From assembly GCA_018657495.1 (NCBI GenBank), contig JABHXA010000001.1:122016-186015 (forward strand): a stretch of DNA of 64,000 bases, in the 5' to 3' direction. Below are positions 14,567 through 15,853 of this stretch, piece after piece. Origin of the DNA: Fidelibacterota bacterium. GTDB lineage: Bacteria > Fidelibacterota > Marinisomatia > SCGC-AAA003-L08 > JACNLC01. Position 1 is the stretch's first letter; every line of letters begins with the position of its first letter. A program made the position numbers and the translations under genes. The notes beneath the pieces were generated by a model. It searched no databases. It was given only the letters and a program-made list of their open reading frames with translations, and was not told the origin of the DNA.

Positions 14567-15853
14567 TTAATCACCAAATAACCGACTAAAAAATCCTCGG
14601 TTTTCCTCATATTCTTCATATAATTCTGTAGCTATTGCTTTTATTTCTGATAGGTCCATGACCATTTCATTCCAGCCATACCATAATGAATAATCCGGGT
14701 TATTATGAAACGCACCCTGGAATAATCTCATTCGGTGTTTTAGATGCATGACAAATAATTTCTGCTCGATTGGTGTTGGTGCATCATGGAATGTTAGCAA
14801 ATCAGGAAAATTGTATAAATAGGTATCCGGTTTAACCAGGAGACCTTTTTCATATAAATCAGCGATAATTCGAATTGCCTCAGCCAAAAGAGCATCTCCA
14901 GCTTTGATGAGATCATCGCCTTTTTTCAATTCACCACGACTATAATTTTCAGAATGGCATTTCATACAGACTTTTATCATTTTCTCTCTCTCAACATCGA
15001 ATCCTTCTGCGGTTAATCGTGCCACCTGGGCATTTGCCACCACATCTAATCTACCAGTTGGTTTTCCTTCTGGATCCAAAACTCCTAAGGCCTGAAGTAT
15101 AGTTACCCGATTTGCCCACCATTCAGCATCTTCTCCTGGATAGGGAGCCAGTCCGTCCGTTCTTACAGCTAGAAATCCCCACGCTGTTCTTACCTCATGA
15201 TCCCCATCGGGCATATGACAATCCTGACAAGTTGGGGCACTGGTATTTTCCGGTAGGATACCGTTCTGTTTTAATAAGTATCTTACACCATGTTTTGATG
15301 ATGAATACATTTCCCACTGCGGATGATCAAAACCCATATGACAGGTCTGGCAAGCCTGGGGTTGACGCGCTTCTTTTAGTGAAAATGTGTGTCTGGTGTG
15401 ACAGGCGTCACAGCTGGCATTACCATAAGTATTACCATTTTTTCTCAGGTTTTCAATCTGAGATTTTGATTTCATTCCAATTTTGTGACAGCCCCCACAA
15501 CCCTTCTGGCCCTCTATCAATTCCATGGGTTTCCAATGGGTTGTCGGCATCGCTTCCATGGCTGCCCAGGCTAATGCATGTTTACCTTTTGAAAACTGCT
15601 CAACCTTTTCTTCATGACATTCAGCGCATGTTTCAGGTGTTGGAAATTCTACTTTTTCCACATCATTATTGTTTTGGTGTTCTTCCCCATGACAGACATC
15701 ACAGCCAATGTCATTCTCGCTATGGGCACTGATTTCCCAATCAGTGACTATACCCGGTTGGATTTCCTTATGGCAATCTGTACAGGTGTCTGCATATAGT
15801 AAGGTGATGGATGCCAGCATAGCTGTTATAAGAATATTCCGTAAATATCTCAT
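14567..15853 (-). CDS. octaheme c-type cytochrome, hydroxylamine oxidoreductase (HAO) family
   Basis: 428 aa with a signal peptide and eight CXXCH motifs (CTDCH, CDVCH, CAECH, CGGCH, CDACH, CQTCH, CQDCH, CMKCH). The core [38 protein letters not shown] matches, from memory, the conserved HAO core [37 protein letters not shown]. Confidence 0.8.
   Translation of the reverse strand: [428 protein letters not shown]

Follow-up and report, generated by a model that had tools for sequence, protein, structure and literature searches.

In the oxidative members of the hydroxylamine oxidoreductase (HAO) family of octahaem cytochromes c, a tyrosine is cross-linked to the catalytic haem of the neighbouring subunit to form the P460 cofactor, and this residue has been placed at Tyr467 in Nitrosomonas europaea and Tyr449 in B. 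fulgida (bioRxiv 10.64898/2026.07.28.741245). HAOs that lack the tyrosine reduce nitrite, hydroxylamine (NH2OH) and nitric oxide (NO) and oxidise neither NH2OH nor hydrazine (N2H4) (PMC8042395), and such Tyr-less "hao" genes are well documented in organisms that are not nitrifiers (PMC5317091, PMC6896113, PMC8940962, PMC12758564, PMC9250108). The gene considered here, which we call the hao-like gene, lies on the minus strand of a 64,000-nucleotide stretch of DNA from a Fidelibacterota bacterium (contig JABHXA010000001.1; the whole stretch is referred to below as the window). By its sequence the encoded protein is a Tyr-less, non-P460 member of the family, and we think it probable that it works as a periplasmic reductase of nitrogen oxides.

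Several reductive relatives of the classical HAOs have been described. Kustc0458 of Kuenenia stuttgartiensis (HAOr; structure 6h5l) is a Tyr-less, nitrite-reducing enzyme with eight haems, and a structure-based superposition places a tryptophan where the tyrosine would be in the reductive anammox homologues of HAO (bioRxiv 10.64898/2026.07.28.741245). The epsilon-Hao enzymes of Campylobacter fetus, C. curvus, Nautilia and Caminibacter (Haase et al. 2017) are likewise Tyr-less octahaem proteins in which, according to PMC8940962, citing Haase 2017, a conserved tryptophan occupies the tyrosine position, and two reports describe them as proposed or shown to reduce nitrite and NH2OH (PMC8042395, PMC8940962). 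A homologue in Caldithrix abyssi, whose phylum carries the clade described below, has been labelled epsilon-Hao and predicted to be an ammonifying nitrite reductase that receives its electrons by a Rieske/cytochrome b route (PMC5317091). In the archaeon Ignicoccus hospitalis the HAO-clade octahaem protein IhOCC (4qo5, 521 aa) is without P460 and is a nitrite/hydroxylamine reductase (PMC9250108).

An octahaem cytochrome of the HAO family

The hao-like gene and the parts of its product on which the argument rests are as follows:

14567..15853, minus strand: hao-like gene, octahaem cytochrome c precursor of 428 aa, ATG start, stop codon counted
15791..15853, minus strand: predicted Sec signal peptide, residues 1-21, from a sequence reading (positive n-region, hydrophobic core)
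15485..15499, minus strand: haem motif 4, C119-G-G-C-H123, predicted site of haem 4, five-coordinate and catalytic; every member of the tight family has CGGCH here
15323..15328, minus strand: predicted distal catalytic pair Asp176-His177, from alignment to Asp267-His268 of the Nitrosomonas enzyme ('GVDH') and to D226-H227 of the Kuenenia HOX chain
14672..14707, minus strand: C-terminal block H383-N-N-P-D-Y388-S-L390-W391-Y392-G-W394, with Trp391 at 14681-14683

The protein is a real eight-haem enzyme of the HAO family (PF13447; clade 1 of Soares et al. 2022). Its CXXCH motifs start at residues 24, 51, 76, 119, 148, 168, 209 and 296 and take up all 16 of its cysteines, against a chance expectation of about 0.03 CXXCH computed from the protein's own composition, and no CXXCK motif, the mark of the Lys-ligated catalytic haem of the ONR/NrfA type, occurs in its 428 residues. 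Papers on the octahaem ammonifying reductases of Desulfurivibrio and Trichlorobacter were considered and set aside, these being CXXCK-bearing, ONR-type enzymes. The N-terminus reads as a Sec signal peptide, with a core of mean Kyte-Doolittle value about 2; haem motif 1 begins 3 residues past the predicted cleavage site, and the mature protein would be about 407 aa long, or about 51 residues per haem.

Searches against family models and solved proteins agree on the assignment. The Pfam model PF13447 matches at 5e-27 (95.2 bits, cut-off 21.9). The best NCBIfam model is the equivalog for hydrazine dehydrogenase (HDH), a match that indicates family-level similarity only, because its 91.4 bits fall far under the cut-off of 900. 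Among PDB sequences, searched with phmmer and hmmsearch, significant matches are confined to HAO, HOX, HDH, HAOr and IhOCC chains, with E-values from 1.7e-29 to 2.3e-20 for the single sequence and from 1.6e-42 to 4.4e-29 for a family profile. The reducing Kustc0458 heads both ranges (1.7e-29 and 1.6e-42), the other matches being Brocadia and Kuenenia HOX, HDH, IhOCC and Nitrosomonas HAO. Neither Otr nor MccA gave a PDB sequence match at E <= 10 or appeared among the 50 matches listed by Foldseek, and the ONR matches in the PDB were limited to E 0.04-4.6 and to a single haem stretch near the N-terminus. Seven of the haem motifs align with those of the solved HAOs; the eighth, catalytic motif 4, has an aligned counterpart in Kustc0458 and in the HOX of K. 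stuttgartiensis (KsHOX) but not in the HAO of Nitrosomonas (NeHAO). A structure model, built with AlphaFold2 from a 24-sequence family alignment, is weak (mean predicted local distance difference test score, pLDDT, 62.7, and below 50 in the haem core) and served for a coarse fold search; with it, all nine Foldseek matches at E <= 1e-3 are HAO-family chains, at template modelling (TM) scores of only about 0.4, and NrfA comes next at E of about 2.

These results bear out the initial annotation, which had read the gene, from the letters alone, as encoding a 428-aa secreted HAO-family octahaem cytochrome with eight CXXCH motifs: the open reading frame (ORF) and motif inventory agree, export agrees on a reading of the N-terminus, and Pfam, the PDB sequence searches and Foldseek concur on the family. 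The annotation had asked for a profile search and had named placement in Otr, ONR or MccA as the outcome that would speak against it; no such placement occurred. The peptides that it quoted are all present in the protein (residues 148-189, 206-214, 296-309 and 382-397), and the NeHAO segment that it gave for comparison, AHVNPGGWTYTEGWGPM, is an exact match to residues 458-474 of 1fgj_A.

The protein is also already on public record. An identical sequence (P0001) carries the NCBI name 'MAG: cytochrome C [Ca. Marinimicrobia]' and the JGI name 'hydroxylamine dehydrogenase', and is recorded on 113 contigs from metagenome-assembled genomes (MAGs) of Ca. Marinimicrobia; the 24 public contigs that were read all have the same gene arrangement as the window.

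The cross-link site and the catalytic pocket

Whether an HAO-family protein belongs to the oxidative P460 subgroup turns on the residue at the cross-link site. In an alignment of 24 family members of 65-76% identity (A1), the C-terminal segment contains the invariant block F382-H383-x-N-P386-D387-Y388-x-L390-W391-Y392-G393-W394. The conserved histidine of this segment precedes the cross-linking tyrosine by eight residues in NeHAO (H459 to Y467), and again by eight in KsHOX (4n4j chain, AHMSMYNQTYGNG; H407 to Y415). Counted in the same way, position His383+8 of the query is Trp391. For KsHOX an offset of 36 converts Y415 of the chain to Tyr451, which we take to be the cross-linking tyrosine, and D226/H227 to Asp262/His263, presumably the published numbering of that pair.

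Two other placements were examined and discarded. HMMER aligns AHVNPGGWTYTEGWGPM of NeHAO with a one-residue gap after "NPG", which puts Tyr467 opposite Leu390; we take the position of this gap to be arbitrary and do not accept it as final, since NeHAO and KsHOX alike count eight residues from histidine to tyrosine, which points to W391. Whichever gap placement is used, the residue is Leu390 or Trp391 and never tyrosine. An alignment by way of P0256 that puts KsHOX Y415 in the column of the query's Y392 is a gap artefact and breaks the His+8 spacing of both cross-linked enzymes. The initial annotation had held the tyrosine alignment to be ambiguous; by eye it is, the one-residue indel being real, but the ambiguity is not beyond resolving, as the His+8 rule gives Trp391. 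Of the two directions that the annotation left open, it is thus the reductive branch that applies.

The same holds for more distant members. In the 70 cluster representatives (50% identity) whose sequences span the block, position 383 is always histidine, and at His+8 tryptophan is found in 44 and tyrosine in none; His383 is invariant in A1, in the wider alignment A2 and in all 70 representatives. Kustc0458 has tryptophan at both His+7 and His+8. The query's own tyrosines, Tyr388 and Tyr392 (His+9), lie off the cross-link site, and Y388 is conserved widely in A2, including in Tyr-less relatives with other residues at the cross-link site, which suggests that its role is structural. The defining tyrosine having been tested for and found absent, the protein falls, as judged from these alignments, outside the oxidative P460 subgroup.

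Some distant members of A2 differ at the neighbouring position: a few (P0143, P0154, P0142, P0150) have tyrosine at His+7, one residue before the cross-link position, and others have histidine at His+7, which may correspond to the 'His at the key site' of PMC12758564. Published alignments of the C-terminal segment probably differ by one register.

The remainder of the pocket is of the HAO type. D176-H177 aligns with D267-H268 of NeHAO and is invariant in A1, and motif 4 (CGGCH) would, by HAO-family convention, bind the catalytic haem. Besides the catalytic H177 there are seven conserved histidines outside the motifs (H44, H59, H92, H155, H188, H219 and H383), and these are the predicted ligands of seven six-coordinate haems.

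Set against the described enzymes, the protein is closest to Kustc0458, which also has eight haems, a histidine followed by tryptophan at +8, and, in its aligned segment CHMGPDHP, the Asp-His motif of HAO. The two are nevertheless only about 23% identical; Kustc0458 has about 55 more N-terminal residues before haem 1 and an insertion of about 50 residues (6h5l residues ~397-444) that the query is without, and the query has no dihaem partner of the Kustc0457 type and a host that is not an anammox bacterium. The epsilon-Hao enzymes share with the query the absence of the tyrosine and the tryptophan at the site, yet PMC8940962 reports a conserved methionine 8 residues before that tryptophan, where the query and all 70 representatives have histidine, and no nap cluster adjoins the query gene. 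With NeHAO, the anammox HOX enzymes (KsHOX, B. fulgida) and HDH the query has in common the order of the haem motifs, the core around haems 5-7, the Asp-His pair and the C-terminal histidine; those proteins, in contrast, have at His+8 the tyrosine that forms P460, are longer (~500-570 aa, with N-terminal extensions), and are encoded with haoB/c554/cM552 or anammox genes, as the query is not. IhOCC is a weaker match (E 4e-29) than Kustc0458. By analogy we expect the protein to work like epsilon-Hao and HAOr, and file it under neither: not under epsilon-Hao, from whose description it is set apart by the invariant His383 in place of the reported methionine, and not under HAOr, because the dihaem partner and the extra segments of that enzyme are missing.

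The clade and the surroundings of its genes

The clade to which the protein belongs is tightly conserved (62-76% identity), very widespread and already recognised. More than 7,600 homologues were found, the top 120 of them spanning 65-76% identity and 380-450 aa, and an exhaustive HMMER search gave 1,487 clusters at 50% identity at E <= 1e-3. In a survey of one genome per species, at least 581 species have a relative; the best 80 of these, at 62-75% identity, are named from Marinimicrobia, Calditrichota, Ignavibacteria, Bacteroidota, Gemmatimonadota, Acidobacteriota/Aminicenantes, Planctomycetota, Zixibacteria, Latescibacterota, Poribacteria, Eisenbacteria, Nitrospirae, Thermodesulfobacteriota and others. 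No Campylobacterota names were seen among the cluster members. Its proteins are "minimal" next to the solved HAOs, since they have neither an N-terminal domain ahead of haem 1 nor, in the stretch that leads from the last haem to the C-terminal block, an insertion of some 50 residues.

To describe gene context, all ORFs within 6 kb of hao were clustered in 88 loci and the Pfam families of two genes on either side were counted. The commonest neighbours were:

Rrf2 Fe-S regulator: 15/88 loci
NapH/MauN-like membrane polyferredoxin: 12/88 loci
Rieske protein: 10/88 loci
cytochrome b: 9/88 loci
tetrahaem c554-like cytochrome: 8/88 loci
DUF438-hemerythrin-PAS protein: 8/88 loci
hemerythrin: 6/88 loci
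ResB: 6/88 loci
CcsA: 5/88 loci
NrfH-like multihaem protein: 5/88 loci

No universal partner gene emerges, since the commonest neighbour cluster reaches 15 of 88 loci and the commonest Pfam family at +/-2 positions 8 of ~70. In a non-redundant subset of 54 loci, each flanked on both sides by at least 3 kb, NapH-like proteins occur in 10, Rieske proteins in 6 and cytochrome b in 6, and 28 have none of these redox or regulator neighbours. A stand-alone gene is therefore the norm for the clade and no peculiarity of this locus. The initial annotation had singled out the gene as standing alone, which is correct here but, with 28 of 54 loci alike, does not serve as a distinctive trait.

The closest relatives from other species, L009 (75% identity) and L003 (73%), have their hao in a five-gene operon of hao, tetrahaem cytochrome, Rieske protein, cytochrome b and nonahaem cytochrome, the last with a C-terminal membrane anchor:

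L009:7941-12723: five-gene operon
L003:8001-12710: five-gene operon

The operon of L012 (70% identity) is similar. By its gene content the L009/L003 arrangement has the look of a bc-type complex dedicated to supplying an HAO-like reductase, and the three operons match the Rieske/cytochrome b route that PMC5317091 puts forward for the "epsilon-Hao" of Caldithrix. That different lineages carry different quinol-oxidising modules beside the gene (Rieske/cytochrome b, NapH-like, NrfH-like) supports a supply of electrons from the quinol pool.

Other relatives have a different kind of neighbourhood. At L002:5207-11254 (Calditrichota GD2) and L005:3218-9257 the string is Rrf2, DUF438-hemerythrin-PAS_10, DUF1858, hemerythrin, PepSY_TM, a membrane protein of 115-119 aa and hao, and loci of the Ignavibacteria type have Rrf2, NapH-like, hemerythrin and hao. 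These Rrf2/hemerythrin strings look like sensor/regulator sets. We attempted to identify the Rrf2 proteins as NsrR and could make no assignment, the scores for IscR, NsrR, RirA and SUF-regulator models all lying far under their cut-offs. Directly 3' of hao in L002, at L002:11608-12291, is a gene for an AhpC/TSA-type peroxiredoxin with an in-frame TGA at the peroxidatic Cys (FTFV*PTE) and a SelB gene about 1 kb beyond; this peroxiredoxin is probably a selenocysteine enzyme.

In the window itself, the gene is separated by 216 bp from an upstream, divergently transcribed OsmC gene and by 261 bp from a downstream group on the same strand that encodes an HlyD/MacA-like adaptor, a MacB_PCD/FtsX permease and an OEP/TolC protein. 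Its control signals are:

14507..14537, minus strand: intrinsic terminator hairpin, 12-bp stem followed by a T-run, 3' of the hao-like gene
15861..15865, minus strand: Shine-Dalgarno-like AAGGA, 7 nt 5' of the ATG, from a sequence reading
15947..15964, no strand: perfect 18-bp palindrome TATGACTCATGAGTCATA in the hao/OsmC divergent intergenic region, its link to the hao-like gene uncertain

The hairpin with its T-run supports a transcription unit of the gene's own, in line with the earlier description of it as monocistronic with a terminator. The palindrome lies mid-way in the 216-bp gap and is present in a single copy in the window; it may be an operator for the hao-like gene or for OsmC, and as a conserved operator it was rejected, since it is not kept 5' of hao in 87 other loci.

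No gene for haoB, c554, cM552, NrfH or NapC is present in the 64-kb window, Pfam annotation of the window finds no amo, hzs, Rieske/cytochrome b, NapC/NrfH or NapH families, and a tblastn search with the relatives' partner proteins matched only the hao ORF, apart from a sub-threshold NapH-like match (E 0.059) at 558-755. An efflux operon and OsmC as the flanks, with no nitrifier or anammox partners nearby, is what the initial annotation had described, and the Pfam annotation, the CXXCH scan and the tblastn search agree with it. The one other CXXCH-containing ORF in the 64 kb encodes a dihaem cytochrome c (20010-20978, minus strand, 322 aa) without an adjoining dehydrogenase subunit gene. Its similarity is to the cytochrome subunits of dehydrogenases that are membrane-bound and act on glucose, fructose and alcohol (8hdd_B, 2.8e-24), and it was rejected as a Kustc0457-like partner, as it matches these quinone-dehydrogenase cytochromes and not chain B of 6h5l.

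Several further genes in the window deserve mention. The OsmC protein (16070-16459) is similar to the OsmC domain found in OsmC-YcaO proteins, with a score for TIGR03549 that stays below the cut-off, and beside it, at 16544-17965 on the plus strand, is a gene for a 473-aa fusion protein that begins with a ThiS/SAMP-like domain, continues with a MoeB/ThiF-type E1 adenylyltransferase and ends in a rhodanese domain; together the two may form a sulfur-carrier or thiolation module. A 1028-aa protein at 35858-38944 (minus strand) joins Peptidase_MA_2, PD40/WD40-like beta-propeller repeats and a C-terminal Omp85 barrel, an unusual outer-membrane architecture, and a tandem pair of paralogues at 60430-61674 and 61756-62973 (minus strand) combines DUF3391 with an HD_5/HD domain. 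Four ORFs have no Pfam match at E <= 1e-3 or 1e-4, namely 8842-9762 (306 aa), 39844-40746 (300 aa), 52600-54411 (603 aa) and 3101-3673 (190 aa), and the public MAG likewise has a gene called at the 306-aa ORF.

Proposed function and its meaning

We consider it probable that the protein acts in the periplasm as a reductive HAO, with nitrite and/or NH2OH and NO as its substrates and ammonium (NH4+) as the likeliest product, and that it uses menaquinol-derived electrons that reach it through carriers encoded elsewhere. After Sec export and haem attachment it would hold eight haems, seven of them bis-His ligated for electron transfer and one, at motif 4, five-coordinate and catalytic, with Asp176-His177 as a proton-relay pair on the distal side. 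Where P460 enzymes cross-link a tyrosine to the haem of the neighbouring subunit it would present Trp391, so that no P460 cofactor would form and the enzyme would be expected to run reductively, a direction suggested by analogy with epsilon-Hao and HAOr. Nitrite and/or NH2OH and NO would be reduced at the catalytic haem, NO being a possible product beside NH4+. Electrons would come from the menaquinol pool (menaquinone biosynthesis genes are present in the window) by way of separately encoded carriers, which in the closest relatives would be the tetrahaem c554-like cytochrome, the Rieske/cytochrome b complex and the nonahaem cytochrome encoded directly downstream of hao. For the substrates, the product, the electron donor in the host organism and the oligomeric state, the scheme gives what we infer.

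Some points weigh against this account. The structure model is poor in the haem core and yields no residue geometry for W391 or Y392 relative to haem 4; Y392, moreover, is invariant in the tight family and adjoins the cross-link site, and the offset used for the KsHOX tyrosine rests in part on the Asp262/His263 numbering. Genes for an electron donor, a nitrate reductase, Hcp and a nitrite transporter were not found within the 64 kb, and a haem A synthase gene (CtaA) marks the organism as at least partly aerobic. We found no biochemically characterised member of the tight clade in the searchable literature, and sequence cannot decide between NH4+ and NO as the product, nor between respiration and detoxification.

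It is on this last point that the most substantial alternative arises, one to which we give a real though clearly lesser chance: that the chemistry is the same and the role is defence against nitrosative stress, the enzyme being a periplasmic scavenger of NO, NH2OH or nitrite, induced by an Fe-S regulator and served by any periplasmic reductant. The three-Cys Rrf2 proteins upstream of hao in 15 of the 88 loci, often with DUF438-hemerythrin-PAS, DUF1858 and hemerythrin genes, fit such a role, as do the loci, about half, that stand alone without a dedicated respiratory module, the peroxide-stress neighbours (OsmC here and the Sec-containing peroxiredoxin in L002) and the aerobic respiration that the haem A synthase gene implies. 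The NrfA of Wolinella is said, from work by Kern, Volz and Simon in 2011, to mediate the response to nitrite, NO, NH2OH and H2O2 stress. The Rrf2 proteins, however, are not assignable to NsrR, none is encoded near hao in the window, and the full Rieske/cytochrome b operon of the closest relatives is typical of a respiratory chain. A one-electron reduction of nitrite to NO, as in the anammox HAOr, is improbable. Kustc0458 is the best match among solved structures by both sequence and fold and has the same histidine and tryptophan, and HAOr does make NO from nitrite, but with a strong reductant it makes ammonium too (PMC8042395); the argument for NO release was built on anammox physiology that is inapplicable here, and the low identity, the missing N-terminal extension and insertion, and the want of a Kustc0457-like partner, the window's dihaem protein being of the quinone-dehydrogenase kind, all count against the comparison.

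The remaining alternatives depart further from the evidence. An oxidative hydroxylamine or hydrazine dehydrogenase, taking part in heterotrophic nitrification or an anammox-like step, would agree with the JGI name of the identical protein, with the listing of hao and hdh among Marinimicrobia genes (10.1101/2020.06.03.132969) and with the presence of Tyr388 and Tyr392 on either side of the cross-link site. We hold it to be very improbable, given the absence of tyrosine at His+8, the HDH score of 91 bits against a cut-off of 900, the absence of amo, haoB, c554, cM552 and hzs genes from the window, and the conservation of Y388 across Tyr-less representatives, which suggests a structural role. Slighter still is the chance that the substrate is not a nitrogen compound at all (sulfite, tetrathionate, a metal or another extracellular acceptor) or that the protein is a mere electron-transfer wire. 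Multihaem cytochromes are catalytically promiscuous, some relatives adjoin large multihaem proteins (c16; in L006 a 1255-aa protein with a Por secretion tail) and no N-cycle genes are nearby; the protein, though, resembles neither Otr nor MccA, is free of CXXCK motifs, and has an Asp-His pocket of the HAO type that does not vary within the tight family.

The window's gene is thus an ordinary and rightly recognised member of a known enzyme family, and its value is interpretive. The names that automatic pipelines give to the clade's genes are "hydroxylamine dehydrogenase" or even "hydrazine dehydrogenase", and such labels have been taken as potential for nitrification or anammox in Marinimicrobia and other uncultured groups (10.1101/2020.06.03.132969). 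The tryptophan at the cross-link site, together with the absence of the tyrosine from all 70 close 50%-identity clusters that span the block, argues for reading the clade's genes as reductive enzymes of nitrogen-oxide metabolism, and makes them unsuited as markers of nitrification or anammox. More speculatively, and we regard this as rather unlikely, the clade may be a functionally distinct enzyme type and not a copy of epsilon-Hao, for example a periplasmic NO/NH2OH scavenger or an NO generator of facultatively aerobic heterotrophs; the idea is prompted by its minimal size, its His...Trp signature, the 62-76% identity kept across phyla and at least 581 species, and the roughly half of its genes that are partnerless, and in many lineages the enzyme may then be under the control of the Rrf2/hemerythrin sensor set. 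Were this so, the very abundant 'hao' (K10535) reads of oxygen-deficient waters, sediments and mats would represent unaccounted nitrogen-oxide turnover and would signal neither nitrification or anammox nor classical dissimilatory nitrate reduction to ammonium. A single biochemical characterisation would calibrate the reading of what is a very abundant metagenomic marker.

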